Shown here: positions 1,091 through 45,522 of the stretch, piece by piece
Layout: every line of letters begins with the position of its first letter
How positions within the stretch are numbered: the stretch's first letter is position 1
Origin: an uncultured Gammaproteobacteria bacterium
GTDB taxonomy: Bacteria; Patescibacteriota; Microgenomatia; Levybacterales; GWA1-39-11
Assembly: GCA_964427615.1 (NCBI GenBank)
Contig: CAYRUR010000004.1
Coordinates: 10,975-74,974, forward strand
Direction of reading: 5' to 3'
DNA: 64,000 nucleotides
Notes under the pieces: model-generated
What the model was told of the DNA's origin: nothing
Seen by the model: the letters and a program-made list of their open reading frames with translations, nothing else
The model's database searches: none
Position numbers and translations under genes: made by a program

Positions 1091-1539
1091 AAATCTCAAA
1101 TGGCAAATCTCAAATCGCAAAACTACAACGTAAATGTCAAATCTGCTGATGTAAAAGTGCGTGCCTATGCCTTTTCATTAAAGGTGATCAGTTTTATCAA
1201 TCAGTTGCCTAATAAAAGAGCATTTTGGGTGATGGCAGATCAACTGTTAAGAGCTGCTACTTCAATTGGAGCCAATACCATTGAAGCCCAAGCTGCAAGT
1301 TCTAGAAGAGACTTTGTTAAATTTTATGAAATAGCGTTAAAATCAGCAAATGAAACTAAGTATTGGCTTTCTCTGTTGAGGGATGCTTATCCTGAAACTA
1401 AAGAGGAATGTGAAGTCTTATTACAAGAAGTGACGGAGATTAGTAATATGTTGGGTGCAAGTTTGCTTACGCTCAAAGGCAAAAAGAAGATTTAAGATTT
1501 AATATGTAGATTTACCACTTGCGATTTGCGTTTTGAGAT
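1091..1539. repeat. Imperfect inverted repeats flanking the four-helix-bundle ORF (tandem AAATCTCAAATGGC/AAATCTCAAATCGC at 1091-1123, inverse copy GCGATTTGCGTTTTGAGAT at 1521-1539)
   Basis: Read directly from the sequence. The upstream arm overlaps the start codon. The reverse complement of the downstream arm is ATCTCAAAACGCAAATCGC, versus ATCTCAAATGGCAAATC upstream. Confidence 0.4.
1100..1495 (+). CDS. Four-helix-bundle protein of the 23S-rRNA intervening-sequence (IVS) family
   Basis: Family hallmark AYAFSLKVISFINQLP...ADQLLRAATSIGANTIEAQAASSRRDFVKFYEIALKSANETKYWLSLLRD; 131 aa. Confidence 0.6.
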   Translation: MANLKSQNYNVNVKSADVKVRAYAFSLKVISFINQLPNKRAFWVMADQLLRAATSIGANTIEAQAASSRRDFVKFYEIALKSANETKYWLSLLRDAYPETKEECEVLLQEVTEISNMLGASLLTLKGKKKI

Positions 1540-29974: not shown

Positions 29975-30111
29975 TAGAGTATCTTTTTATATCGATCAAT
30001 ATTTGGTATCAAGGCATAATTTTTTTTTATATTTTTACAATTTATACTATTGATTCATCTTTGTCTTTTCATTGTAAAATTGTTCGTGAAAAGCTATAAT
30101 GAGACCTGTCT

Positions 30112-31122
30112 ATGGAAAAGATTTTTGGATTTGCAATTCTTTCATTTTTTATAACGGCAATTTTGATAATTCCGTTTATTGATTTCTTATATAAGATTAA
30201 GCTACAAAGGAAAAAGCAAGAAACAAAAGATATCTTCAATCAAAGAACTCCCTTATTCGATAAACTAAACAGTTCAAAAGTTGGAACTCCTTTTGGTGGA
30301 GGGTTACTCATTATTTTTGTAGTAACTATTCTGTCTTTGTGGGCATATGGGTTGCTGGCAATAGAGGTGAAGTTTTGGGAGTTATTTGTGCTTCTTTTTT
30401 CTTTCATTGGTTTTGGTGTTTTGGGTTTTTATGATGACTTAAAAAAAATCCTAAACGTAGAAGGTCCGAATTCTTTTTTTGGCTTGAGATTTACTCATAA
30501 GTTTTTGATTCAATGGATTTTGGCAATTATTATTGGAGCTGTTTTCTATTTTCAGCTGGGTTACTCTTTTGTTTTTATTCATTGGATAGGGACCATTCCC
30601 ATAGGTCTTCTTTTCATTCCCTTTGCAGCCTTTGTTATTGTCTCATTTGCGAATGCTTTTAATATTACTGATGGATTAGATGGGTTGGCTTCCGGTTCAT
30701 TTTTAATTTCTCTGATGGCATTTTTAGTTATCTCTCATACTTTACTTGATACTTTTCTGGCAATTTTTATTGCCTTTTTATTAGGAGCAGTTATTGCCTT
30801 TTTGTATTTTAATATTTATCCAGCACGTCTCTGGCTTGGAGATGTAGGGTCTTTGTCTTTAGGAGCAGTCTTTGCTGTCATTGGATTGTTAACAGGGAAG
30901 ACAAGTCCGTTAGTGTTAATTGGTGGCATATTTGTTATCGAAGTTGCTTCTTCATTGGTGCAAATCTTGGGGAAGAAATTCTTACATCGCAAACTGCTTC
31001 CTATTGCACCGCTACATCTATATTTCTTAAAAAAAGGATGGGAAGAACCTAAAATAGTCATGAGAGCATGGCTGATTGGTATTATTTTTGCTCTCTTTGG
31101 GTTATTTATTGCATTCTCATGA
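30112..31122 (+). CDS. mraY: Phospho-N-acetylmuramoyl-pentapeptide transferase
   Basis: ANAFNITDGLDGLASG; 10 TM helices. Confidence 0.85.
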   Translation: MEKIFGFAILSFFITAILIIPFIDFLYKIKLQRKKQETKDIFNQRTPLFDKLNSSKVGTPFGGGLLIIFVVTILSLWAYGLLAIEVKFWELFVLLFSFIGFGVLGFYDDLKKILNVEGPNSFFGLRFTHKFLIQWILAIIIGAVFYFQLGYSFVFIHWIGTIPIGLLFIPFAAFVIVSFANAFNITDGLDGLASGSFLISLMAFLVISHTLLDTFLAIFIAFLLGAVIAFLYFNIYPARLWLGDVGSLSLGAVFAVIGLLTGKTSPLVLIGGIFVIEVASSLVQILGKKFLHRKLLPIAPLHLYFLKKGWEEPKIVMRAWLIGIIFALFGLFIAFS

Positions 31123-32195
31123 TCCGCAAAGCAGGAATCTCATTATTTTTCATTACGCTCTTTTTGGCACTTCTGGGGATTTTTATTCTGTATGAAACAT
31201 CCTCATATACTGCATTGTTAAACATTGGTGATAAATACTATTTTGTAAAAAATCAGCTTATGTGGTTAACAGGTGGAATTCTGATTTCTGCTATTCTTTG
31301 GCGATTCAACTACAAAAAGCTATATCAGCTTGCGCTTCCTCTTCTTATTATCAACATAGTCTTACTTTTTCTTGTTTTTTTTCCGGGCATTGGTTTGAGT
31401 TTGAAAGGATCGCATAGATGGATAGACTTAGGTTTTTTTGTTTTTCAGCCCTCTGAGATGCTTAAAATTACTTTTACGCTTTACCTGGCAGCATGGTTAT
31501 CCTCCAGTGAAAAAGGTCGATTTTTAGCATTTTGTCTTTTATTTCTTTTTGCTACAGCCTTAGTTGCTCTGGAGCCAGATATGGGTACGGCACTGGTTAT
31601 TGCAGTCACCGCTGTCTCAGTCTATTTTTTGTCCAATGCTCCTATAAAAGAATTGGGACTTATGTTTTTGATTTTAATTTTAGGTTCAGTTTTGCTCATT
31701 AAGATGGAGCCTTATCGTATAGCTCGTCTTACTGCTTTTCAAGAAGTGAGTCCTACTAACATCCAGGATATGTCATATCATACAAAACAAGTTTTAGTTG
31801 CATTAGGGTCAGGAGGGTTAACAGGAGTGGGTTTGGGTAACTCTATTCAAAAATATGGGTATGTACCTGAAAGTACTACTGATTCTATTTTTGCTATTTA
31901 TGCTGAAGAAGTGGGATTTTTAGGTTCTGTATTTTTAATTCTTGTGTTGTTTGCTCAATTAATGATGGGCTTTATTATTGCAGCCCATGCACCTGATAAA
32001 TTTGGAAAATTACTAGCAGCTGGTATTGTAATCTTTTTGGGAGCTCAGATGTTCTTAAATATTGGATCTCAAGTGGTGGTGATGCCGCTTACGGGAGTTC
32101 CATTACCTTTCGTTTCTTATGGAGGTTCTTCTATGATTATTAATTTTGCTGCTATTGGTATATTATTAAATATTTCCAAAAGTAAACATACATAA
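31119..32195 (+). CDS. ftsW: SEDS-family peptidoglycan glycosyltransferase FtsW
   Basis: Polytopic SEDS protein with C-terminal PLTGVPLPFVSYGGSSMI, in the position between mraY and murG. Its ATG at 31119 overlaps the mraY TGA (ATGA). Confidence 0.75.
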   Translation: MIRKAGISLFFITLFLALLGIFILYETSSYTALLNIGDKYYFVKNQLMWLTGGILISAILWRFNYKKLYQLALPLLIINIVLLFLVFFPGIGLSLKGSHRWIDLGFFVFQPSEMLKITFTLYLAAWLSSSEKGRFLAFCLLFLFATALVALEPDMGTALVIAVTAVSVYFLSNAPIKELGLMFLILILGSVLLIKMEPYRIARLTAFQEVSPTNIQDMSYHTKQVLVALGSGGLTGVGLGNSIQKYGYVPESTTDSIFAIYAEEVGFLGSVFLILVLFAQLMMGFIIAAHAPDKFGKLLAAGIVIFLGAQMFLNIGSQVVVMPLTGVPLPFVSYGGSSMIINFAAIGILLNISKSKHT

Positions 32196-32196
32196 C

Positions 32197-33333
32197 ATGA
32201 AAGTAGCAATCACAGGAGGACATTTTTCTCCAGCATTATCAGTTATAGAAGTATTACGCAAAAGGCAAGATACGGTAGTTGTGTTGGGAAGAAAGTATGT
32301 TTTTGAAGGAGAAGATGCTGTTTCACTAGAATACAAAATATGTCAGAAAAATAATATTCCTTTTTATGAGATAAAGGCTGCTCGATTACAGAGAAAAATT
32401 ACCCAGCACACACTTCCTGCATTATTACGTTTTCCACGAGGTATTTTTGATGCTATAAAAGTATTACGAAAAGAAAAGCCTGATGTTATTTTGTCTTTCG
32501 GAGGGTACATTGCCTTACCTGTAGCATTAGCGGCTTTTATGCAACAGATACCAGTAGTTATTCATGAACAAACACAAGAGGCAGGGCTTGCGAATAAAAT
32601 AATTGGAAAATTTGCAGATAAAATACTGCTTTCTTTCCCCTCTTCAAAAAAACATTTTCCAAAAGGAAAAATAGTAGTTACTGGTAATCCCTTACGTAAA
32701 GAAGTTTTTACAGTAGAAAAAAAACAAGATCTTGTACCTGGTAAAAAGCTTATTTATGTTACGGGCGGAAGTGCAGGATCTCACTTTATAAACTCACTTA
32801 TTAAAAAAACAGCACCAACTTTACTTGAAAAGTATGCGATTATTCATCAAACGGGTGATTCACAACTATTTAAAGATTATGATCTTCTTTATCAAATGAA
32901 AGAAAGTCTGCCTTCAGATCTTGCAAAGAGATATATCTTACAAAAATTTATTCTTCCTGATGAAATTGGGTGGATTCTAAAACATGCAGACCTTGTTATA
33001 GCACGCTCAGGAGCCAACACAGTGCTTGAGTTAATAGCGTTGGAGAAAAGGTCTTTATTGATACCGCTTCCTCATGGACAAAGTGGAGAACAACTCAAAA
33101 ATGCTCAACTGATGAAAAAAATAGGATTGGCTGAAGTTTTGGAACAAGAGCAAGCCACAGGAAAACAGTTTCTTGAGACTGTGGAAAAAATGATGCATAA
33201 TCAAAAAGGATACAAAATAGAAGAGCAGGTGAAAAAAAACTACTTTTTCCCTCATGCAGCAGAAGCTATAGTAGAGCAATTAGAAAAAACCAATGAGACA
33301 AAGAAGAAAAAAACAACCGATTATCATTCCTAA
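32197..33333 (+). CDS. murG: UDP-N-acetylglucosamine--N-acetylmuramyl-(pentapeptide) pyrophosphoryl-undecaprenol N-acetylglucosamine transferase
   Basis: MKVAITGGHFSPALSV...GGYIALPVALAA...VIHEQT, the GT28 motifs. Confidence 0.8.
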   Translation: MKVAITGGHFSPALSVIEVLRKRQDTVVVLGRKYVFEGEDAVSLEYKICQKNNIPFYEIKAARLQRKITQHTLPALLRFPRGIFDAIKVLRKEKPDVILSFGGYIALPVALAAFMQQIPVVIHEQTQEAGLANKIIGKFADKILLSFPSSKKHFPKGKIVVTGNPLRKEVFTVEKKQDLVPGKKLIYVTGGSAGSHFINSLIKKTAPTLLEKYAIIHQTGDSQLFKDYDLLYQMKESLPSDLAKRYILQKFILPDEIGWILKHADLVIARSGANTVLELIALEKRSLLIPLPHGQSGEQLKNAQLMKKIGLAEVLEQEQATGKQFLETVEKMMHNQKGYKIEEQVKKNYFFPHAAEAIVEQLEKTNETKKKKTTDYHS

Positions 33334-33706
33334 AAAGCTTTTTTTGGGAATTGGTATTCTTTTCATCCTAGTAACTACTTTTACTGTGGGTTGGCGTTTG
33401 TTTGCAATGCTTACGCAGAGTAGTAAAGAAGATGTCTATGTCCCGGTAGTCGGTAATTTTTCAGTAGAAGATTTAAGACAAAAGCTTGATCAAAAAAACC
33501 TTTCTTTTGAAGATTTAAAAGTATCTACCCAAGAGGCTGCTGTTATCGGGAAAGTAAAAGGAGGTCCGACAGTCATTTTTTCAAAGAGCAGAGCGCTTGA
33601 TTGGCAGGTAGACTCTTTACAATTGATCATGACAAGACTTACAATAGATAAGAAAGATCCTGTTTTAGTGGATCTACGGTATGATAAGCCTATTGTAAAA
33701 TTCTAG
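33293..33706 (+). CDS. Short FtsQ/DivIB-like bitopic division protein
   Basis: A basic N-terminus, one TM helix (LFLGIGILFILVTTFTVGW) and a ~100-aa extracytoplasmic domain, in the canonical position between murG and ftsA. Confidence 0.35.
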   Translation: MRQRRKKQPIIIPKKLFLGIGILFILVTTFTVGWRLFAMLTQSSKEDVYVPVVGNFSVEDLRQKLDQKNLSFEDLKVSTQEAAVIGKVKGGPTVIFSKSRALDWQVDSLQLIMTRLTIDKKDPVLVDLRYDKPIVKF

Positions 33707-33728
33707 CGCATGGGCTATAAAAATATAT

Positions 33729-35012
33729 ATGAAAGATGCACCTATTGTTGTTGGCGTAGATATTGGATCCTCAAAAGTAGCTACGCTTATCGGTCAAATT
33801 CAGGAAGATGTTATAAATATTCTTGGTGTCTCAGAAGTTCCCGCAAAAGGTATTCGTAAAGGGCAAATCGTTGATATTGAAGAAGCTGCCCAATCGTTAA
33901 ATGCTTCACTTGATGTGGCAGAAAGAATGGCAGGAACTTCCATAGATAGAGTTTTTGTATCTATCAGTGGTGTACATATTCAAAGCCAAAACTCAAAAGG
34001 AGTTGTAGCAGTGTCTCACCCTCAAGGAGAGATCCAGCCTACTGATATTGACCGAGTACTTGAGGCTGCGGGAGCTGTCTCAATGCCCTCTACCAGGACT
34101 ATTGTTCACGTGCTTCCTCGTAGTTTTACGGTAGACGGTGAGGGTAATATTAAGGATCCAGTGGGTATGACAGGGGTAAGACTAGAAGTTGATACCCATA
34201 TTATTTCAGCCAATGTAGTCTCAGTCAAAAATATCCAGCGGGTATTAGAGTCAGAAGGTGGTGTGCAAATAAAATCATTTGTGTATTCAGGTTTTGCTTC
34301 TTCTCTGGCAGTGCTTTCCGAAACAGAAAAAGAATTAGGTGTTGTGTGTGTAGACATAGGTGCAGGAGTTACTAATATTGCGGTTTTTGTTGAAGGAACT
34401 CTTTCTTACTCCAGTGTTATTCCAGTAGGTGCGAGGCACATTACCAATGATCTTGCCATAGGACTTCGTATTTCCCTTGAGAGTGCTGAGAAAATTAAGT
34501 TGTTCCTTTCACAAAAAGGAAAATCCAAAAAGAAAACAGATGAAGACAATACAGATGAGATAGATCTTTCTTCATTAGGGCTTGGAGAAGAGTTGAAAAA
34601 AGTGTCACATAAGACACTGGTGGATGGTATTATAAGACCCCGCTTAAATGAAATCTTTACCATGGTGGGAATAGAACTGAAAAAGAGTGGATTTGCTACT
34701 CAAACTCCTGCAGGACTTGTTATAACCGGAGGTGGAGCAAAGACAATTGGTGCAGAAGAAGCAGCAAAGAGAATGCTTTCTATGCCAGTAAGAATTGGTA
34801 CTCCTCAGCAAATTACCGGGCTTATTGATGATGTAGAAAATCCTTCATTTGCCACAGCAGTAGGATTGCTTACGTTTGGTAAGGATTTTAGAGGGGTAGG
34901 AAAAGAAGATTTGGTAGATTCTATGTTTGGTGGATTATCTTTTGGGTCTTTCTCCTCAGTTGCATCTATTACTGCCTCTCTTAAAAAATTGCTCAAAAAA
35001 TTTATTCCATAA
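33729..35012 (+). CDS. ftsA: Cell division protein FtsA (actin-like ATPase)
   Basis: PIVVGVDIGSSKVATLIGQ...; DIGAGVTNIAVF. Confidence 0.8.
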   Translation: MKDAPIVVGVDIGSSKVATLIGQIQEDVINILGVSEVPAKGIRKGQIVDIEEAAQSLNASLDVAERMAGTSIDRVFVSISGVHIQSQNSKGVVAVSHPQGEIQPTDIDRVLEAAGAVSMPSTRTIVHVLPRSFTVDGEGNIKDPVGMTGVRLEVDTHIISANVVSVKNIQRVLESEGGVQIKSFVYSGFASSLAVLSETEKELGVVCVDIGAGVTNIAVFVEGTLSYSSVIPVGARHITNDLAIGLRISLESAEKIKLFLSQKGKSKKKTDEDNTDEIDLSSLGLGEELKKVSHKTLVDGIIRPRLNEIFTMVGIELKKSGFATQTPAGLVITGGGAKTIGAEEAAKRMLSMPVRIGTPQQITGLIDDVENPSFATAVGLLTFGKDFRGVGKEDLVDSMFGGLSFGSFSSVASITASLKKLLKKFIP

Positions 35013-35073
35013 CCCATTGAAAAATACTCACAAGTGTGCTAGGATTCATACAGGTAATTCCTAATATATTCCT

Positions 35074-36177
35074 ATGCTTATTAGACCTCAAACAGCAACT
35101 TTTGCCAAGATCCGTGTGATAGGAATTGGTGGCGCTGGCGGAAATGCAATTAACTCCATGATAGAAAATGCCAATATTAAAGGCGTTGATTTTATTAGTA
35201 TTAATACTGATGCACAGGCACTTTTAAACTCTCGAGCTACCGTAAAACTCCAAATTGGAGAAAATATTACCAAAGGTCTTGGATCAGGTGGAAATCCTCA
35301 GGTTGGTCAAAGTGCTGCAGAGGAGAGCAGAGAAAAAATCAGAGAGATGCTGGAAGGGTCTGATATGATTTTCTTAACTGCCGGAATGGGCGGTGGAACA
35401 GGTACTGGTGCAACACCCGTTATTGCACAAATCGCAAAAGAAATTGGAGCTTTGACAGTAGGAGTAGTAACCAAGCCATTTCTATTTGAGGGTACCAGAC
35501 GAATGGTCTCAGCAGAAGGTGGAATTGAAGAATTAAAAGATAATGTAGATACGCTTATTATCATTCCTAATCAAAGAATTTTAGAGTCAGTGGACACAAA
35601 ACTGTCTCTATTGGATGCCTTTAAAGTTGCAGATTCAGTACTTTCTCATGGTGTACAGGGAATCTCAGATCTTATCACTGTACCTGGTCTTATTAATGTA
35701 GATTTTGCCGATGTAAAATCTATCATGTCTGATGCAGGAAGCGCTTTGATGGGAATTGGTATTGGTACGGGAGAAAACAGAGCACAAATTGCCGCAAAAC
35801 AAGCTACTTCCTCACCATTGCTTGAGGTATCTATGGATGGCGCACGAGGAGTGCTTTACAACATTACCGGTGGTCCAGACCTTTCTATGGCAGAGGTAGA
35901 TGAAGCCTCAAAGATTATTTCAGCTGCAGCAGATCCTGATGCAAATGTTATTTTTGGTACTACTATAGATCCTGACATGAAAGACCAAGTAAAGATTACG
36001 GTTGTTGCGACCGGATTTGACGAATCCAGAAAAAGATTACAGCAGATGGTAAATCATGAAGAGGTATTAGTCAAAACACATCAGGAAGAAGTAAAAAACA
36101 ACGAACCAGAACCACAAAAAAGAGAAGAAGAAGAAAGCGTTTTTGATATCCCCGCATTTCTAAGGCAGAGAAATTAA
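35074..36177 (+). CDS. ftsZ: Cell division GTPase FtsZ
   Basis: [15 protein letters not shown], the tubulin signature GGGTGTG, and a C-terminal DIPAFLRQ tail. Confidence 0.92.
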
Positions 36178-36208
36178 AGTTTAAAAATCAATCTAAATTG
36201 ATTCGTAA

Positions 36209-36234
36209 GGAGTCCCAAAAGGACTCTTTTTTTT
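36209..36234 (+). terminator. Rho-independent terminator after ftsZ
   Basis: GGAGTCC-CAAAA-GGACTCT stem-loop followed by a T8 run. Confidence 0.6.
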
Positions 36235-36418
36235 GTGGTTTTAAAAGAGAGGGGTAGGTGAGAATTAAGAAACCTGCAAATATCTTGTAGGTGAGTTTAG
36301 TGTTTGAATTGTATTAAATATTATAACCTTTATCAAACTTTTTTTTAACTACTCTCAAGATTGTGATCGATGTATATCTTGTTTGACAGGTTTAGTAAAA
36401 AGATCTTAAAATTATTAT

Positions 36419-36859
36419 ATGCCAAAAACACCTTCTTCTAGAAGTTATAAAAATAATATCTACAAATTAAAGCAAACGAAGAAAATCTTTTATAAGAGTA
36501 TTGTTTCTATTTTTTGTCCTGTTTTAAACGATACCGTTTATTTTACAAGTGAGGGTTTTAATCATCTCTTATATGATACTAATCGTAAACCTCGCAATAT
36601 TGATGAGCAGTTTATGAAATTGCAATGCTTGTCTTATGTTCCTGATGTTTTAGAAAAGAGTACGATATTAGCTGATACACGAACTTATGAATTTGAAGTG
36701 AAAGGCAAGAAAAAAATTGGGGTTCATTATGCAATTTCTCACGAGGTAAAGAAAGGTAAAGAAATTCGTGTCATTGTATCTCGCATTGGGAAAGGGAAGT
36801 ACAAGTTTTTAAGTGTAATGCCTCACAATAAAAAATCAAAAAATAAAAAGCACCCGTGA
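36419..36859 (+). CDS. Hypothetical small basic protein (146 aa)
   Basis: Lys-rich ends; no recognisable motif. Followed by an AGCACC/GGTGCT hairpin. Confidence 0.3.
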   Translation: MPKTPSSRSYKNNIYKLKQTKKIFYKSIVSIFCPVLNDTVYFTSEGFNHLLYDTNRKPRNIDEQFMKLQCLSYVPDVLEKSTILADTRTYEFEVKGKKKIGVHYAISHEVKKGKEIRVIVSRIGKGKYKFLSVMPHNKKSKNKKHP

Positions 36860-37071
36860 AGGTGCTCTTTAGTTGTGCTGGCTCTCGGCTTAGATATATC
36901 TTAGCTGAAGAAGGGCTTGCGCCCACCAGCACATTGTCAGTATATGTTACAATTTGAGTTATGTCAACCCCTAAACATCCTATAAGAGTTATTTTTAGGA
37001 AAGAAAATAATAAGAGATTAGTAAGTGGAATGAGTTTAAAAATGAATTGAGATAAGCAAAAAGAGATTTCC

Positions 37072-37707
37072 TTATCCTTTGATCAACTTTTTTAATTTAC
37101 TCTCTATATCTTCTTTGGATAATCTTTGTTTCAAATTCTTTATATCTTGTTCGTGTTTTTCTAGCTTCGGATCTCCTCTGTATTCTCTTTTGTAAATTTT
37201 ATCTACAATTTCGGTAAGTGGATCTTGAATTTCATAAGAGATGGTATGAAGAGTGGCTGTTAGCGTATTGTATGCATGAGGTGGAGATGAGCTTTTATCT
37301 TTTTTGACAATAGTTTTTGTGTTGCTAAAAGGGTCTTGAAGAGCTTGCAGGTAACCTATATCTGCTCCGAAATCAGTATAGCGTGCAAGGATATTGTGAT
37401 AATAATCTTTTCTTCCTTTGTCTTCTATTGAGAATTGGTTAAATGCTTCATGTGCTTCTCCTATGGCTATAAGTAAACCATTAACAGTTTGCAAAGCATT
37501 ACTCTCTTTTCCCTATATCTGAATATCAATGTCATTATGAAATCTTGTGATTTCTCCAAGGAATCCATCTACTGCATATCCTCCAGAGATGATAATTCTA
37601 ATTCCTTGCTCTTTTCCAATTTTAGTTATCAAATCTATAAATGTTAAAGCTTGTTGCGTTTTTTCTTGCTGAGCTGTCGTTAGGTTTTGTTTGATAATAT
37701 GATGCAT
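37072..37707 (-). pseudogene. Aminoglycoside-2''-adenylyltransferase-like (pol-beta superfamily) nucleotidyltransferase interrupted by a single in-frame TAG
   Basis: ORFs 37513-37707 and 37072-37494 are in the same frame, separated only by a TAG at 37513-37515 (plus strand CTA). The N-terminal part carries the nucleotidyltransferase motif GGYAVDGFLGEITRFHNDIDIQI. Confidence 0.5.
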
Positions 37708-37797
37708 AATAGAATTATATCAAGGAATTATTGTAATGATTTGTCTTCTCTAAGACTTGATAGCTTCTATGCTTTGAGTATAATAGATAACTGAGCC

Positions 37798-38451
37798 ATG
37801 GACAAAGAAAGTTTAGAAGAGATTAAAAGAGAGAGCCAAAAACAGCTAAAGAATTTTTTACCGGAACACATTATTCCTTACGATAATTATAAAAATAAAG
37901 CTGTAGAAGAAAAGTATACTATCGTTGCAATACCAAAAAAAGAGACAATAGAAAAGATTGAAACGTGGATAGAAGAGTTAAAAAAGTATGATGAATCTCA
38001 ATATTATTACAGTCCAGAGCAACTGCACATAACGTTATTTGGTGAAATTTCTACTTCTCTTGATCCAAAACTTATTGTCCAATCTGTTAATGCAATAAGA
38101 GAAAAGTATACGATACATTTTAGATTAGAAGGTATTGGAAGTAATTATTTTGTATCTTCAATACTTGCATATCCTCAAAATTTTTCAATGTCTGATTTAA
38201 GAAAAGATTTGAGAGCATTGCTTGGCCAACAAGGGACAGATTACACAAAGCATTTATCTGTATATGAATCAATAGGATGGATAAATTATATGCGTTTTGC
38301 ACATAAACCAACTAAAGAATTTATCCATATCCTTCAGCAAAATATGAATAGAGATTTTGGGATAATGGTACCGGAAAAATTAGAGTTATATAAAGTAACT
38401 GGAAAGATGATAAATGATGGAAAAAGTGAATTGCTTCACGTATTTTCTTAA
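37798..38451 (+). CDS. 2H phosphoesterase superfamily protein (LigT / 2',5'-RNA ligase / cyclic phosphodiesterase-like)
   Basis: Two H-x-T/S-x motifs at the expected spacing: EQLHITLFGE and YTKHLSVYES. Confidence 0.5.
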   Translation: MDKESLEEIKRESQKQLKNFLPEHIIPYDNYKNKAVEEKYTIVAIPKKETIEKIETWIEELKKYDESQYYYSPEQLHITLFGEISTSLDPKLIVQSVNAIREKYTIHFRLEGIGSNYFVSSILAYPQNFSMSDLRKDLRALLGQQGTDYTKHLSVYESIGWINYMRFAHKPTKEFIHILQQNMNRDFGIMVPEKLELYKVTGKMINDGKSELLHVFS

Positions 38452-38482
38452 ATAATGTTTAGTGATTGTTTTTCTCTGTACA

Positions 38483-38512
38483 AAAAAGCCCCAGAAAATT
38501 CTGAGGCTTTTT
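38483..38512. terminator. Bidirectional hairpin terminator between convergent genes
   Basis: AAAAAAGCCCCAGAA..TTCTGAGGCTTTTTG; an A-run on one side and a T-run on the other. Confidence 0.4.
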
Positions 38513-38531
38513 GTAATTATCGGTCGTCAAT

Positions 38532-39158
38532 TTAGTGACTTTGGTGAGCAAAGTGACTGACGCATTGACCTTGGTTTTTAAATGATGGAGAAGTGAAATT
38601 CTTCCATCCACCATTTTTACACTGATCTTTCAGTGTTTGGCCGCTTACTGTAACCGGTGAGCCATTGACCATGATGTTGGAAAGGGTTGTTTGTCCTTCC
38701 TCGTCCTGGACAATATCTATTCCAGTAACTGTTTCGCCAGTTGGGAATAGGACACCACCGTAAGTATTGCCTGCGGTAAAGGTTACTTGTCCACTCCCAT
38801 CATTTCCATGGGTACATCCTAAGAAAATAGTCTGGCCATTGGATAAATAGACGTTAAATCGGGGAGCACCTGCACCGCAATAGTCATCCACTTGAAAGCT
38901 CAATGTCATATCAGAGGTAGAAAGGCCCTCAACTCCCTCTATGGCTGCACCTGCTGCTGCATTGGTACTAGTAGGTACATTTTTTTCTAAATGCAGACTT
39001 CCATCACTGGTAACTTGAGATACAACACCTCCAGTATTGGTCGGGTCATATGTCCATGGATTTAGGGAAAATGTTGCAGCAAAGGAAGATACTGCAGCAA
39101 CTGCAAAGAGAGAAAGAGCAGCTACTCCTACTGACATTCTCAGAGCAAAATTTCTCAT
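38532..39158 (-). CDS. Secreted hypothetical protein with signal peptide; Gly/Thr-rich, predicted beta-rich
   Basis: N-terminal MRNFALRMSVGVAALSLFAVAAVSSFAATFS (signal peptide with an AXA site) and conserved Cys pairs. Its G+C is visibly higher than that of its neighbours. Confidence 0.45.
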   Translation of the reverse strand: MRNFALRMSVGVAALSLFAVAAVSSFAATFSLNPWTYDPTNTGGVVSQVTSDGSLHLEKNVPTSTNAAAGAAIEGVEGLSTSDMTLSFQVDDYCGAGAPRFNVYLSNGQTIFLGCTHGNDGSGQVTFTAGNTYGGVLFPTGETVTGIDIVQDEEGQTTLSNIMVNGSPVTVSGQTLKDQCKNGGWKNFTSPSFKNQGQCVSHFAHQSH

Positions 39159-39281
39159 CTTTGTATCACCTCCTTTCGCATGTCGTAGCTTATACCTTAT
39201 ATGCTGAAAAGGTCAAAGTCAACGAATTTTTTGTAAGCATTTGGTAAGACAAATGCTATAAGGTATATATTAATACTATTA

Positions 39282-40223
39282 TTGAGGTATATAATGCATG
39301 TTATGCAAAGGCCTGTTACTATCACACCATTAGAGAAAAAAGCGCAACAGTTGAGTCAAGATTTTAAGATGCATTTTGATAACCTACAGGATGTATCAAG
39401 TGATCATGGGGAAAATACTATCTATGCAGCAGACATGGGACAAGAGAAAGTTATAATACGGATAAGGAAGAATACAGAATGGAATCCTTTTCCGCTTGAG
39501 GTATGGGCATATAATCAATTCAAAAAATATGCTATTCCTGCACCAGATGTTATTGCATACCAAGAATCACCAAAACGTATTGGTTCTCCTACTCTTATTC
39601 TAAAAAGAATTCCAGGAAAGACTGTAGGGGAGAAAAAACTGGGCATACTGCAAGAGGGAGAGCTTTTTGAACAAGCAGGTATGATTTTAAACAAAATACA
39701 TCAGATTCCAGTAGTAGGATTTGGTTTTTTACATATTAATGATGCATATGCAAAAGGAGATACTGAATCATGGAAAAGTCATTGGGAAAGAAGAGGAAAG
39801 CCAGAGCATTTCCAACAATTGGTTAAAGAACACATTATTACGAAAAAAGAATGTCGTATTCTTTTAGATTTGTATTATGAAGTAATTGAGTTGCCAGTAA
39901 AGACGCCATCCTTTCTGCATAATGATTATCATGCACGCAATATGATTACTGATGGTAAACGTATTACTGGTGTAATTGATCTATCCAACAGTTTTTCCGG
40001 AGATTACCGATATGATATTGCTACCGCGTTATTTTTCCAGACTTCTTTTCAACAAAAAGTATTTATAAAAGGATATGGAAAGGGAGCAGAAGATCCAATA
40101 ATCAAAAAATACCTGATAGTAGTATCTGGTATAAAAGTTGCAGGGAGGTATTACAGAGGACATTTTACTGGTACACAGAGAGCTCTGCAAACTTTTAAAG
40201 CCTACATAAAACCCTTATTGTAG
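39282..40223 (+). CDS. Phosphotransferase-family kinase (APH / choline-kinase fold)
   Basis: Brenner catalytic loop HNDYHARNMI and a downstream IDLSNSFSGDYRYD metal-binding motif. Confidence 0.55.
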   Translation: MRYIMHVMQRPVTITPLEKKAQQLSQDFKMHFDNLQDVSSDHGENTIYAADMGQEKVIIRIRKNTEWNPFPLEVWAYNQFKKYAIPAPDVIAYQESPKRIGSPTLILKRIPGKTVGEKKLGILQEGELFEQAGMILNKIHQIPVVGFGFLHINDAYAKGDTESWKSHWERRGKPEHFQQLVKEHIITKKECRILLDLYYEVIELPVKTPSFLHNDYHARNMITDGKRITGVIDLSNSFSGDYRYDIATALFFQTSFQQKVFIKGYGKGAEDPIIKKYLIVVSGIKVAGRYYRGHFTGTQRALQTFKAYIKPLL

Positions 40224-40312
40224 TTAAAATACATAAATGCTATTTTTTGTCTTTCTTTTCTCTTACTGCTTCTTAACATGAGTTTTTTATCTCCTCTTTA
40301 AAATGTTAATGT

Positions 40313-41512
40313 ATGGAGGAAAAGAAGAGATATGAGTCCTTGTGGGTTGCTACCACTCCATCTACAAACTACCCAGCATTATCTGAAAATATGAAAACAG
40401 ATGTAGTGGTAGTAGGAGGTGGAATTGTTGGAATCACCACTGCCTTTTTATTAAAACAAGCTGGGGTACAAGTAATTCTTATAGAGTCAGGTAGAATTGT
40501 TGAGTTAACAACAGGAAATACAACAGCAAAAGTTACTTCTCAACATGGGATCAAGTACTCTAACTTGCTCAAAAAGTATGCAAAAGAAGGCGTAAGAATG
40601 TATGCTATGGCAAATGAAGCAGCTGTTAAAAAAGTAAAAGAGCTGGTGGATACCTACAAAATCGATTGTGATTTTTACACCACACAGAGTCATACGTATG
40701 CATCTCAAGAATCGGACAGAAAAAAAGTGGAAGAAGAGGTAAAAGCATCACAAGAGTTTGACCTGCCAGCATCATTTGTAGATGATATTGCGCTGCCTTT
40801 TAAAACGTATGGTTCAGTAAAATTTGATAATCAAGGACAATTCCATCCTAGAAAATATTTATTGCATTTGATTCAGCAAATTGATGGTAATGGTAGTTTT
40901 GTTTTTGAAAATACAAAAGCACAAGGAATTAAAAAAAATAATGGAAACTATACGGTATCAACTGATAAAGGAGATGTCACAGCTGATTATGTAGTGATTG
41001 CCACGCATACGCCTTTTGTGGATCCAGACATGTACTACAAAAAGATGGCTGCATATAGAGACTATGCGATAGCTATAAGGATACCAGGCGAAGCACCTTC
41101 CGGCACATATATTGGTACTACAATTGGTTCACTTTCCATTCGCAATCAACCACATAATGATGAGTTGCTTTTAATAGTAGGCGGTATGTCAGAGGATGAG
41201 GATAAAGCAAGCAATCCTGAAGAAAGGTTTAAGATGTTGGAGTCATCTGCGAGAGGAAAATTTGGTATAGAGGACATTTTGTATCGTTGGTTTACTTTTG
41301 ATTATGATGATCCTCAAGATGGTGTCCCTACGATAGGAAGGCTTACACCAACGTGGGAAAATGTGTATGTGGCGACTGGTTTTGCAGGGTGGGGAATGAC
41401 ACATGGGACAGTTGCAGGAATGACTTTTTCAGGTATTATTACAAAAAATAAGCCCATTTGGAGTACATTTTATGATCGATTTGAGCGTGAGAGGTTTAAA
41501 TTAAATGAATAA
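40313..41512 (+). CDS. FAD-dependent oxidoreductase (DAO family)
   Basis: N-terminal dinucleotide-binding motif DVVVVGGGIVGITTAFLLKQAGVQVILIE. Confidence 0.6.
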   Translation: MEEKKRYESLWVATTPSTNYPALSENMKTDVVVVGGGIVGITTAFLLKQAGVQVILIESGRIVELTTGNTTAKVTSQHGIKYSNLLKKYAKEGVRMYAMANEAAVKKVKELVDTYKIDCDFYTTQSHTYASQESDRKKVEEEVKASQEFDLPASFVDDIALPFKTYGSVKFDNQGQFHPRKYLLHLIQQIDGNGSFVFENTKAQGIKKNNGNYTVSTDKGDVTADYVVIATHTPFVDPDMYYKKMAAYRDYAIAIRIPGEAPSGTYIGTTIGSLSIRNQPHNDELLLIVGGMSEDEDKASNPEERFKMLESSARGKFGIEDILYRWFTFDYDDPQDGVPTIGRLTPTWENVYVATGFAGWGMTHGTVAGMTFSGIITKNKPIWSTFYDRFERERFKLNE

Positions 41513-41517
41513 AAAAG

Positions 41518-42585
41518 TTATCCAGTGAGTTTGTTAAGGTTTGGGATCTTATGAATGACAAATGCAATGGCAAAGGAAGCAGAAGTGACAGTTATAAAAA
41601 GGAGAGGATCAAACCATACTTGTCCTACTATTTCTGTTCCTGAGTGTTCTACCACTTTCTTACCAAATGTATTCCAGATGGATGACAGTATAGCAACGTG
41701 TACAAAAAACACAAAAAACGAGAGTCGAGAAAAAAGAACAATATAGTTTTTAAAACGCTGATGTTGGTCAAAGTAGTAAAAGAGGAGTCCCGTAAGAAGG
41801 AGCGTAAAAATATAATTGGCGATATGATACTGTGAGTAAATATAACCGATTTTTCTTGTCTGTAAAAAAAGGATCTGACTTTGTAGGAAAACAAATATTG
41901 TCGAGAAGAAAAACAATGTGAAAAACAGACGTGCATTTTTTTCGATAAAGGTGAGAATTTTTTCTTTATGGTGACTTGCAATCATACCTCCTAAAAATAA
42001 CAGATAACTTGCAGCAGCTACGCGAAATGGAGTTATAACTGGAAGATTTAAGATATAGTAATCAACTGCCAAGATTATTATTTGTATGAGAACAAGAGGA
42101 AAGAAAATTATTTTTTTAGATAGGAGAGGAAGTGCTTTGTGAAAGATTGGAAAAAGAAGATAAAAGATAATCAGTGTAGGAATAAAATATAGTTGGTATG
42201 ATGCTATGCCTAGCAAAATATTTTTTGCAAATGAAAAACTAAGTAAGTCAGAGAGTGGAAATTTATTTATAACAACAAAATAAAATGCAGTCCAAAAAAA
42301 ATAGGGGATAATAATTTTACTTGCTCTTTTTTTAAAGTAGGTTGCATAATTCACTTTTTCTTTATAGTTAAGTTCTAATACAAACCCTGAAATAAGAAAA
42401 AAAAGTGGGACTGCAAATCGTGCTGTTTGATTCAGAAATAATGACCAGGCAGTCTTTTCTACGTGATATCCTGAAACATTCAAAGAAAGCGTAGTAGTAT
42501 GAATGAGAATGACTCCAAGAATTGCCAATACTCGCAGAAGGTCTATTGCTACATGGTACGTGTTTTTTTCATGCGTTTTTGCCAC
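41518..42585 (-). CDS. Acyltransferase family 3 membrane protein (OafA/OatA-like)
   Basis: IDLLRVLAILGVILIHTT and about 10 TM helices. Confidence 0.65.
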   Translation of the reverse strand: MAKTHEKNTYHVAIDLLRVLAILGVILIHTTTLSLNVSGYHVEKTAWSLFLNQTARFAVPLFFLISGFVLELNYKEKVNYATYFKKRASKIIIPYFFWTAFYFVVINKFPLSDLLSFSFAKNILLGIASYQLYFIPTLIIFYLLFPIFHKALPLLSKKIIFFPLVLIQIIILAVDYYILNLPVITPFRVAAASYLLFLGGMIASHHKEKILTFIEKNARLFFTLFFFSTIFVFLQSQILFLQTRKIGYIYSQYHIANYIFTLLLTGLLFYYFDQHQRFKNYIVLFSRLSFFVFFVHVAILSSIWNTFGKKVVEHSGTEIVGQVWFDPLLFITVTSASFAIAFVIHKIPNLNKLTG

Positions 42586-42660
42586 CAGTCTATTTTATCA
42601 AATTTTTTAACAGTCTATTCATGTCTTGAAGCAGTTATGTATATAGAGTAAAATAGTTGC

Positions 42661-45522
42661 ATGTTTAAAACAGTTTCACCCAAGGTAGATTTTCCTGAGA
42701 TGGAGCGCAACCTTTTGGAAAAATGGTATAACACCGGAATAGTTGAAAAGTACCTGCACTTAAATGATGTTGCAGATAAACAGTTTTCTTTTCTTGATGG
42801 ACCTATTACCGCTAATAACCCTATGGGTGTGCATCATGCCTGGGGAAGAACGTATAAAGATTTTTGGCAGCGTTTCTGGAACATGCGCGGATACAGACAG
42901 CGATTTCAGAATGGTTTTGATGAACAAGGGCTATGGGTAGAGGTAGAAGTAGAAAAAGAATTAGGACTGAAAAGCAAAAAAGATATTGAGAATTTAGTAC
43001 CAGGAGATAAATTCAAAAGTCTTGAGAAATTTATTAACCTCTGCAAAGAGCGAGTCGTAAAGTTTTCCCAAATCCAAACAGAACAATCTAAAAGACTAGG
43101 TTATTTCATGGATTGGGATAACTCCTATCACACTTCCTCTGATAAGAACAACTATACCATTTGGCATTTTTTGCAAGTGGTGAATGAGAAAGGATGGTTA
43201 TATAAGGGAAGAGATAGTGTGCCTTGGTGTCCTCGCTGCGGAACAGCTATCTCTCAACATGAGATCTTAACAGAGGAATACAAAGAGTTAACGCATACTT
43301 CTGTTTTTTTCAAACTTCCTCTTGTAGATGAAGAAAAGAAGTACCTCTTAGTATGGACAACGACTCCGTGGACTATTCCTGCCAATGTGGCAGTAGCTGT
43401 AGATCCTAACTTAGATTATGCTGAAGTTGCAGTAGAGGGTGCAACCTACATTGTAGCGGATGCAGTGTCTCAAAACATATTACCAGAAGGGAAGAAAACA
43501 AAAGTATTCAAAGGATCTGAGTTGGTAGGAAAAAAATATACCGCTCCTTTTGATAATCTGCCTGCGGTACAACAATCTCTAGGCTCATATGAGCACAGAA
43601 TTATTGCTACAGATCCTCTCATCTTGCCTATTGTTACAGAAGAAGGAACAGGACTTGTGCATATTGCTCCTGGTGCAGGTACGCAAGACTTTGCCCTTGG
43701 AAAAAAAGAAGAATTACCAGTTATTGCACCAATTGATGAAGCAGGTATATATGTGGAAGGATTTGGTGCTTTTACAGGTCTGCATACCAAAAAAGTAACT
43801 GAGGGAGTTATTGAATATCTTCAAGAACATGACTTTTTACTCAAAGCTGAAAAGTATACTCACCGTTATCCTACCTGCTGGAGATGTAAGACAGAGCTGG
43901 TATGGAGAGTAGTGGATGAGTGGTATATTGCCATGGATAAAAAAGACGAGAGTGGCAAAACATACCGTGAGCAAATGATTGAAGTTGCAAAAGAAATTAC
44001 CTGGATGCCTTCTTGGGGATTGGATCGAGAGCTTGATTGGCTCAAAAACATGCATGATTGGCTGATTTCAAAAAAACGATACTGGGGACTTGCTCTTCCT
44101 ATTTGGGAATGTAATGACTGCCATCATTTTATGGTGATTGGTGGGAAAGAAGAGTTAAAGGAAAAAGCAGTTGAAGGATGGGAATCTTTTGAAGGAAATA
44201 GTCCACATAGACCATGGGTAGATCAGATAAAAATAAAGTGTGATGAGTGTGGAGGGATAGCAACACGCATTCCAGATGTAGGGAATCCTTGGCTTGATGC
44301 TGGCATTGTGCCATTTTCTACCATGCCTTCTGAATGGTTTCCAGCAGATTTTATTACTGAGAGTTTTCCTGGTCAGTTTAAAAATTGGTTTTATGCATTG
44401 ATTGCTATGAGTACTGCACTTAAAAGTACCAATCCTTTCAAACGGGTACTAGGATTTGGATCAGTCAGAGATGAAAAAGGAGAAGAAATGCATAAGAGTA
44501 AGGGGAATGCAATTGAATTTAATGAAGCAGCAGACAAGATAGGCGTTGATGTAATGAGATGGCTTTATCTTCGCACCAATCCAGAGCATAACGTAAGTTT
44601 TGGATACCATGTAACAGATGAGATTCGCAGATTATTTTATTTGCGGTTATGGAATGTCTATTCATTTTTTGTAATGTATGCCAATGTAGATGGATGGGAA
44701 GCACAAAAAGACAAACCATTTACTCCATCTAAAGTACTGGATAAATGGATTCTGTCTCGTCTGAATCACAGTGTAGAAGTAGTAACCGACTTGGTAGCTT
44801 CCTACAATGCACAAGAAGCAACGAAAGAGGTAGAGCATTTTATCATTGATGAGTTATCCAATTGGTATGTGAGAAGAATAAGAGATAGAGTAGGTCCAAG
44901 TGCAATACAAGGAAAGGATAAAGATGATGCATATACTACGCTCTGGATAGTGCTTACCACTTATGCAAGACTTTTGGCTCCATTCATGCCATTTATCGCT
45001 GATGAAATATATACTAATTTAACAGGAGAAGAATCAGTGCATATAGTACAGTGGCCAGAAGTAAATAATGAGCTTATTGATACAAAACTGGAGCAAGAAA
45101 TGGCATATGCAATAGAGCTTGCTTCTGCAGCACACGAATTAAGAAGAGAATCCGGTGTAAAGGTAAAAATCCCATTAAAAACACTTTCTTATAATGGTCC
45201 TGCGCAGTTGAGTGAAGAAGTCATAAAAATCGTACAAGAAGAGACAAATGTATACAACTTGGTGTATGAGAAAAAGCAAGATGTCTTTAGTGTGACTGGT
45301 TCAACAGATGTAGAAAATCAGGATTTAGTGGCAGGACAGGTAAGAGACATTATCAGAAAAATCCAGCAAGAAAGAAAAATACTGGGGACAACTTTTAGTG
45401 AGAAAGTGGACGTGTATTTGCCAGAGTGGCCAGAAGGAAAAGAAGAGGATATTAAAAAGGGAGCTTTAGTTGATAGTATGATGAAATCAGAAGAATTTAA
45501 AGTTGTACGTAAAAATGCTTAA
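42661..45522 (+). CDS. ileS: Isoleucine--tRNA ligase
   Basis: HIGH-region GVHHAWGRT, the editing-domain signature WTTTPWTIPANVAVAV, KMSKS-like MHKSKGN and Zn-ribbon Cys pairs; 953 aa. Confidence 0.9.
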   Translation: MFKTVSPKVDFPEMERNLLEKWYNTGIVEKYLHLNDVADKQFSFLDGPITANNPMGVHHAWGRTYKDFWQRFWNMRGYRQRFQNGFDEQGLWVEVEVEKELGLKSKKDIENLVPGDKFKSLEKFINLCKERVVKFSQIQTEQSKRLGYFMDWDNSYHTSSDKNNYTIWHFLQVVNEKGWLYKGRDSVPWCPRCGTAISQHEILTEEYKELTHTSVFFKLPLVDEEKKYLLVWTTTPWTIPANVAVAVDPNLDYAEVAVEGATYIVADAVSQNILPEGKKTKVFKGSELVGKKYTAPFDNLPAVQQSLGSYEHRIIATDPLILPIVTEEGTGLVHIAPGAGTQDFALGKKEELPVIAPIDEAGIYVEGFGAFTGLHTKKVTEGVIEYLQEHDFLLKAEKYTHRYPTCWRCKTELVWRVVDEWYIAMDKKDESGKTYREQMIEVAKEITWMPSWGLDRELDWLKNMHDWLISKKRYWGLALPIWECNDCHHFMVIGGKEELKEKAVEGWESFEGNSPHRPWVDQIKIKCDECGGIATRIPDVGNPWLDAGIVPFSTMPSEWFPADFITESFPGQFKNWFYALIAMSTALKSTNPFKRVLGFGSVRDEKGEEMHKSKGNAIEFNEAADKIGVDVMRWLYLRTNPEHNVSFGYHVTDEIRRLFYLRLWNVYSFFVMYANVDGWEAQKDKPFTPSKVLDKWILSRLNHSVEVVTDLVASYNAQEATKEVEHFIIDELSNWYVRRIRDRVGPSAIQGKDKDDAYTTLWIVLTTYARLLAPFMPFIADEIYTNLTGEESVHIVQWPEVNNELIDTKLEQEMAYAIELASAAHELRRESGVKVKIPLKTLSYNGPAQLSEEVIKIVQEETNVYNLVYEKKQDVFSVTGSTDVENQDLVAGQVRDIIRKIQQERKILGTTFSEKVDVYLPEWPEGKEEDIKKGALVDSMMKSEEFKVVRKNA

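Follow-up and report, generated by a model that had tools for sequence, protein, structure and literature searches.

Does the nucleotidyltransferase (NTase) gene that is interrupted by an amber codon in this 64-kb window (the whole stretch of DNA that was analyzed, 64,000 nucleotides) still yield an enzyme, or has it been lost? A first-pass annotation had described two minus-strand ORFs lying in the same frame and parted only by a TAG, and had considered them as either a fresh pseudogene or a recoded gene. Translation of the minus strand bore out this arrangement: 64 aa, the TAG, 146 aa and a terminal stop follow one another in a single frame (Table 1). Reading through does give a single product, of 211 aa and not the approximately 212 aa announced. 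The downstream ORF had been listed from a TTG at 37494, six codons past the TAG; the frame itself is open straight from the TAG. The 140-aa product counted from this TTG stands as a separate protein in the public record (P0001, NCBI/Logan). We consider it very probable that the locus is a recently inactivated gene, i.e., a unitary pseudogene or a null allele, in which TAC or TAT was changed to TAG at Tyr65 of a 211-aa nucleotidyltransferase.

Table 1. Features of the interrupted nucleotidyltransferase locus, in window coordinates.
Feature	Position	Strand	Basis or remark
Whole disrupted gene, very probably a PF10706-type nucleotidyltransferase pseudogene	37072..37707	-	211 codons + terminal TAA
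Lesion: amber TAG at codon 65, where a conserved Tyr codon is expected	37513..37515	-	Next base is G
Codons 1-64, N-terminal fragment expected to be translated	37516..37707	-	PF10706 and ANT(2'')-Ia alignment, AF2 model
Codons 66-211 and stop, remainder expected to stay untranslated	37072..37512	-	Conservation, AF2 model
Codon 118, Gly where the family has Tyr (DIYYLQ to DIGYLQ)	37354..37356	-	Conserved-column comparison

The two ORFs are one gene, which codes for a pol-beta-fold nucleotidyltransferase and is split by a single in-frame amber codon. We searched 5.8 billion protein clusters with the read-through product and obtained 41 homologs of 143 to 219 aa (nearly all 188 to 219 aa) at 44 to 66% identity, nearly all of which span both halves as single polypeptides. 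About 40 homologs, of 190 to 215 aa, are intact, and all 40 carry a precomputed PF10706 match. The same search also returned P0001, the 140-aa C-terminal piece of the locus itself. A comparison with orthologs had been proposed as a check. It yielded about 40 single-protein homologs that cross the break site, and orthologs do not consistently end at the position of the TAG but cover both halves. The nearest relative shares 66% identity with the NTase in protein and 71% in DNA. At the column of the stop, at least 90% of 43 aligned sequences have Tyr, with the consensus HNDIDIQIYG. The Tyr codon is TAC in the two closest relatives (P0002, P0003) and TAT in three more distant ones (P0021, P0026, P0010), so that one third-position substitution suffices to give TAG. 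When modeled with AlphaFold2 (AF2) and the homolog alignment, the read-through product formed one compact domain (pLDDT 95.7, pTM 0.90).

The read-through product scored 30.8 bits against Pfam PF10706 (Aminoglyc_resit; E = 3.7e-7, gathering score 21). This match is above threshold and extends over residues 31 to 74, across the stop, although it covers the NTase core only (profile positions 9 to 52 of 149). The motifs that had been reported in the N-terminal 64 aa are present as SGGYAVDGFLGEITRFHNDIDIQI and align with GGGWAIDARLGRVTRKHDDIDLTF of the aminoglycoside nucleotidyltransferase ANT(2'')-Ia. A profile built from the family matched ANT(2'')-Ia chains at 6e-9 and LnuA at 0.03, in both cases over the core only. 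By structure, Foldseek placed the model next to ANT(2'')-Ia (E = 1e-7, TMq 0.59 to 0.60, TMt 0.67 to 0.71, 195 to 201 columns). The description "AadB-family" thus holds at the level of the superfamily and fails at that of the family, with 27.7 bits against a cut-off of 350 for the NCBIfam model of ANT(2'')-Ia (NF000064). The NCBIfam Lnu models (NF000017, NF000061, NF000141 and related ones) gave 14.3 to 27.5 bits, against cut-offs of 300 to 350. An ANT(2'')-Ia or Lnu resistance enzyme proper was ruled out by these NCBIfam scores, which are 14 to 28 bits where 300 to 350 are needed. The AbiEii models were likewise not reached, at 12.8 bits against 22.5 for Pfam PF08843 and a marginal 13.7 to 16.1 bits with PADLOC. 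Membership of a defense system was also considered and set aside, the PADLOC AbiEii scores being marginal only.

The NTase family is a rare CPR lineage, found mainly in Microgenomates. When 1.84 billion representatives (clusters at 50% identity) were scanned exhaustively with HMMER, 33 proteins passed E <= 1e-30 and 242 passed E <= 1e-3; the named members come from Gottesmanbacteria and Levybacteria MAGs. Our working model, drawn from the fold and the motifs, is that of a putative stand-alone small-molecule O-nucleotidyltransferase. By analogy with ANT(2'')-Ia and LnuA, the intact enzyme would most likely move NMP from an NTP to a hydroxyl group of a small molecule. Two members have additional parts. 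P0165 (392 aa) carries an N-terminal P-loop kinase of the uridine-kinase/PRK type (PF00485, 53.6 bits) fused to the NTase, and P0166 (346 aa) has a 140-aa C-terminal extension that has no Pfam match and contains YIMDGNHTFEALKLLG, which may resemble ParB/Srx-fold motifs. A few members or remnants lie on short contigs binned outside the CPR, as "Ferruginibacter sp." and "uncultured Gammaproteobacteria" (L007, on JANOCC010000005.1, 2.4 kb; L010; L011). These could reflect binning contamination or horizontal transfer.

In the AF2 model, the N-terminal piece comprises a helix (11-33), a strand with the hGG motif (39-41), a second helix (42-50) and a strand with the DxD motif (59-63). G42 and G43 are encoded at 37579-37584, D59 at 37531-37533 and D61 at 37525-37527. 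S41-G42-G43 and D59-I-D61 align to G26-G28 and D44-I-D46 of ANT(2'')-Ia. In the latter enzyme, D44 and D46 bind two Mg ions and D86 is the catalytic base, the D44A and D86A substitutions each abolish activity, and both domains contribute to substrate binding (PMC4313920). The C-terminal piece of the model consists of a helix (71-85), strands 93-99, 104-109, 114-119 and 148-161, and helices 163-210. It provides the rest of the NTase sheet, followed by a C-terminal hairpin and helix bundle with the family signature DKIYKRExRGDPK..H.QDI.NL. Two acidic residues of this piece are conserved at 90% or more, D96 (37420-37422) on strand 93-99 and D116 (37360-37362) on strand 114-119. Both are candidates for the third catalytic acid. 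The hhalign alignment to the aadB product stops at residue 79, short of both; judging from the strand order, D116 would be the likelier equivalent of D86 of ANT(2'')-Ia. Inside the catalytic sheet, the stop directly follows strand 59-63 and precedes helix 71-85. As it comes after the DxD motif (D59, D61) and before D96 and D116, neither fragment has a complete active site.

We then considered how stop codons are used in the window, which has a GC content of 35.7% and is 92% coding under code 11. Its FtsZ is 74 to 75% identical to those of named Candidatus Levybacteria, which places the host in the Microgenomates of the CPR. Alternative genetic codes occur in some CPR lineages. The 57 long ORFs end with TAA (34), TAG (13, or 23%) or TGA (10), and after several of the TAG terminators the next gene starts within a few bases. 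We scanned the 64 kb for single in-frame stops flanked by long open stretches. The NTase was the only coding frame interrupted by TAG, the other cases being gene boundaries or antisense shadow frames. The window thus gives no sign of a non-standard genetic code. Genome-wide reassignment of TAG was rejected on these grounds, i.e., the use of all three stops, the 92% coding density and the lack of any other TAG-interrupted coding frame.

The lesion is real at the level of the assemblies, since it was reproduced in those of two sequencing runs and in the NCBI contig. The exact 140-aa product is encoded on three contigs, namely, the NCBI contig (95,992 nt) and Logan contigs of SRR7082976 (an 11.8-kb contig) and SRR7082966. 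The latter two have no mismatch to the window over 6423 and 2756 nt, respectively, TAG included; neither breaks at the site of the TAG, and no alternative contig was found there. If the TAG were a sequencing or assembly error, the true codon would be TAC or TAT and the gene intact. A single-base difference would be enough, MAG consensus sequences contain occasional errors, and the rest of the gene is perfectly preserved. Nevertheless, substitution errors are rare in consensus Illumina assemblies, and their recurrence in independent read sets is not expected, whereas this TAG is in three assemblies, and the unbroken Logan contigs match the window at every base along 6.4 and 2.8 kb. An isolated error in one consensus is very unlikely, and we give little credence to an error of any kind. 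A minor intact allele, or a systematic error common to both runs, might conceivably be hidden behind the consensus. It is also conceivable that a null allele is segregating and not fixed, with intact and broken alleles coexisting and the assemblies showing the majority allele. A gene free of other decay is what a very young mutation of this sort would leave, and the frequent independent losses in the family (see below) would be expected under fluctuating selection. Against this, both run assemblies continue unbroken across the site and offer no alternative contig, and no intact protein more than 66% identical to the NTase was found among the 5.8 billion clusters. We regard a segregating allele as unlikely on balance, and as a refinement of gene inactivation more than a contradiction of it.

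The remaining alternatives would preserve a functional product. In one of them, the cell makes both the 64-aa and the 140-aa piece, and the two associate as a working enzyme of two chains. Gene callers do predict both pieces, both are found in public protein sets, and split enzymes exist in other families. However, the only in-frame start of the C-terminal piece is a TTG without a Shine-Dalgarno motif, in a window where 45 of 46 genes start with ATG, and no ATG occurs in the 146 codons past the TAG, which makes a functional split enzyme improbable. In addition, the break separates strand 59-63 from helix 71-85 within one compact domain, no homolog is arranged as two genes with a proper second start, and the other short matches are contig-end fragments or decayed copies. 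We see next to no chance for such a split enzyme, and the 140-aa downstream "protein" is best seen as a gene-caller artifact. The other alternative is functional recoding: a suppressor, for example of the tRNA-Tyr(CUA) type, or context-dependent read-through would let ribosomes pass the amber codon and complete the enzyme, possibly in small, regulated amounts. The ancestral residue here is Tyr, precisely what classical tRNA-Tyr-derived amber suppressors insert, and the 146 codons past the stop are undamaged and conserved in appearance. The first-pass annotation had proposed a search for a suppressor tRNA(CUA). None was found in the part of the genome that was scanned, about 72 kb made up of the window and some 8 kb of extra flank (loci L096, L097 and L001). 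tRNA-Val(CAC) is the only tRNA of the window, and the extra flank has none. Other observations speak against recoding. TAG ends more long ORFs than TGA does and is not avoided as it would be under an efficient suppressor. The NTase is the sole interrupted coding frame in 64 kb, and no ortholog has a TAG at this column, where no stop of any kind was found among about 35 related loci. No known recoding signal was found near the stop, with no Rfam match at E <= 1 in window positions 30000 to 45000. Finally, the base after the stop is a G, which is not a leaky context in E. coli termination. We therefore consider functional recoding highly unlikely. Low-level natural UAG read-through may yield a little full-length protein. 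A more specific version, in which a low-efficiency tRNA-Tyr-derived suppressor or context-dependent read-through puts Tyr at codon 65 and throttles the enzyme, has in our view only a very slim chance of being right. If it were true, it would be a natural case, confined to one gene, of amber suppression serving a CPR bacterium as an expression valve. Of the two possibilities that had been raised for this gene, a fresh pseudogene is strongly favored, in view of the TAC or TAT codons of the Tyr column, the two run assemblies, the lack of further decay and the normal use of TAG. Recoding found no support, with no other interrupted gene in the window, no ortholog bearing the TAG and no tRNA(CUA) in about 72 kb.

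In the inactivated gene that we favor, a single third-position substitution would have turned the conserved Tyr65 codon into an amber codon. Translation would end after residue 64, right past the strand with the two aspartates predicted to bind Mg. The product would lack the third conserved acidic residue and all of the C-terminal, substrate-binding half, and at 64 aa it would be unable to form the fold. We infer that the NTase gene has lost its function, that it did so recently and that it is dispensable, the last because it sits in a variable accessory stretch after the dcw/ftsZ cluster and because the family decays repeatedly.

The age of the lesion was judged by counts of conserved columns and by HMM scores; synonymous sites are saturated relative to the nearest relative, so that dN/dS was not used. 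The window copy deviates at 4 of 64 conserved columns (the stop and three others), for a family mean of 3.1 (sd 2.6). Two of the deviations, G138K and G151A, are also present in at least one of the closest relatives. The third, Y118G, is unique to the window copy. At least 85% of the family has Tyr at this position, which is on the strand of D116 and two residues beyond it. The change could mark the beginning of drift, or it could have impaired the active site at an earlier time. Against an HMM of the other members, the window copy scored 281.9 bits, and its nearest intact relatives scored 280 to 296 bits. No frameshift or second stop was found in the NTase copy. As the rest of the gene has no further decay, inactivation was probably recent. 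Of random substitutions in the gene, 5.4% are expected to generate a stop, and a copy that has taken 30 neutral ones still has a 19% chance of showing none. The lack of a second lesion limits neutral drift to fewer than roughly 30 to 50 substitutions, a loose bound that dates the event weakly.

Other copies in the family are also broken. In L024 (995-1570), on a contig with a coverage of 2, there is a TAA at codon 22. L038 (3400-4300) has kept the first 18 codons and about the last 75, with an internal deletion. L010 and L011 (4959-5123) hold a 55-aa C-terminal remnant. P0211 (JGI 3300042731, contig A36PBYt5) lies inside its contig, away from the ends, as an ORF of 65 aa that stops one residue beyond the Tyr column, and an 82-aa ORF is found 390 nt downstream of it. 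Broken copies make up about 10% of the loci seen. Because they differ in kind and, P0211 excepted, in place, repeated loss of a dispensable gene fits them better than a programmed event. That P0211 breaks off so close to the column of the TAG is a coincidence that weighs somewhat against this view; under the improbable reading of amber suppression as an expression valve, it could point to a favored site of breakage.

The first-pass annotation had also likened the locus, given its neighboring genes for a divergent 2H phosphoesterase and an APH-fold kinase, to a nucleotide-modifying or RNA-repair-type module. The product of the divergent gene (37798-38451) scored below threshold for 2H/LigT (PF13563, 19.8 against 27 bits; TIGR02258, 26.8 against 65.7 bits) and contains two H-x-T/S motifs (LHITL and KHLSV), and from these motifs a 2H protein appears plausible. 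The APH-fold kinase (39282-40223; PF01636, 85.9 bits) is not an immediate neighbor, with two genes between it and the NTase. The module itself found no support: at about 28 homolog loci no 2H protein was located beside the NTase, no Pfam family occurred in more than three among the 70 flanking genes, and the region is non-syntenic in the nearest relatives. When the window 2H, APH, 146-aa, 208-aa and DAO proteins were compared by tblastn with the homolog loci, one weak match was obtained, for the APH protein at L014 (29% identity over 128 aa). Only at the P0003 locus (L014/L015) is the NTase immediately next to an APH-fold gene, which ends 2 nt before the NTase start. Together, this adjacent gene and the kinase fusion of P0165 give no more than a hint of a loose association with kinases.

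In the window, the NTase pseudogene belongs to a series of genes between 36200 and 41500, following murG-ftsQ-ftsA-ftsZ. This series consists of a gene for a 146-aa LPD3-like protein, the NTase pseudogene, the 2H-like gene, a gene for a 208-aa protein with a hydrophobic N-terminal segment, the APH-fold kinase gene and a gene for a DAO oxidoreductase. In the two closest relatives (L099, L100), ftsZ is followed by other, unrelated sequence, which makes the segment from 36.2 to 41.5 kb a variable accessory region. The GC content is 30 to 33% around 36.0 to 38.5 kb, compared with 35.7% overall.

Some other features of the window were recorded. A candidate small RNA is located at 36835-36967 on the minus strand, between the NTase stop and the convergent gene for the 146-aa protein. 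A promoter-like TTGACA-17-TATACT (11/12) at 36967-36939 precedes it. The predicted RNA, of about 95 nt, has a long-range stem and a 12-bp terminator hairpin with a U-run (36871-36844). Its MFE is -42.3 kcal/mol (z = -5.7 relative to shuffled sequences), and part of this folding signal is trivial, the terminator being bidirectional and also serving the gene for the 146-aa protein. The interval 36835-36967 had no Rfam or tRNA match. Regarding translation initiation, a Shine-Dalgarno motif is absent at 38 of 46 gene starts of the window, and several ATGs occur 5 to 10 nt after a TATAAT-like box. For the NTase (start at 37707), TATAAT is found at 37719-37714, six bases before the ATG, and GAGTATAAT precedes the 2H gene (start at 37798). 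These features point to mRNAs that are leaderless or have very short leaders in this Levybacteria genome. At least two paralogous genes for a "23S rRNA intervening sequence protein" (PF05635) were also found (window 1100-1495; L096, 1460-1822), and they adjoin glycosyltransferase and gatB/dnaE genes.

For annotation, the consequence is simple: the 64-aa and 140-aa "hypothetical proteins" should be merged and flagged as one pseudogene, and the locus itself has little import beyond this. As a case, it separates a point-mutation pseudogene from recoding in the CPR by asking which codon was ancestral, whether independent assemblies agree, how terminators are used and what state the orthologs are in. 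That the family is rare, related to antibiotic-modifying NTases, occasionally fused to a kinase and repeatedly lost suggests a dispensable small-molecule-modifying function.

Among known enzymes, ANT(2'')-Ia, the aadB product (PDB 4WQK, 4XJE, 5CFS and 5KQJ), resembles the window NTase most in structure, over nearly its whole length. The hGG and H-x-D-I-D motifs of the two align residue for residue, and hhalign gave a probability of 97% for residues 21 to 79 of the NTase against 6 to 64. Both are stand-alone proteins of similar size (177 aa for ANT(2'')-Ia and 211 aa for the NTase) built of two parts, an NT sheet followed by beta-hairpins and a helical bundle. In contrast, identity is only 18 to 20%, and sequence homology is undetectable beyond residue 79 of the NTase. 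The signature DKIYKRExRGDPK..HEQDI.NL is specific to the family of the window NTase, whose hosts are CPR bacteria and whose gene is not an integron cassette.

The lincosamide-type enzymes Lnu(A), Lnu(C), Lnu(D) and Lnu(P) (PDB 4FO1 and 4WH5) are likewise small stand-alone NTases. LnuA is the second-best fold (E = 4e-7, TMt 0.68), and Lnu(D) gives a weak 27.5 bits, close to the score of ANT(2'')-Ia; at 16% identity, the sequence alignment is confined to the NTase core. The MenT/AbiEii toxins of type IV/VII toxin-antitoxin systems (PDB 8AN4 and 6Y5U) form the next tier by fold (E of about 1e-5, TMt 0.36 to 0.58). They differ from the window NTase in that its scores are below all of their thresholds and that none of about 28 NTase loci has a conserved adjacent antitoxin gene or other partner. 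As to the lesion, it is like those of ordinary bacterial nonsense pseudogenes, with a point mutation, a gene caller that splits the frame into two "hypothetical proteins" and relatives that are intact. Nothing material sets it apart from them, and only its host is particular, a streamlined CPR genome, of a kind in which pseudogenes are comparatively few.
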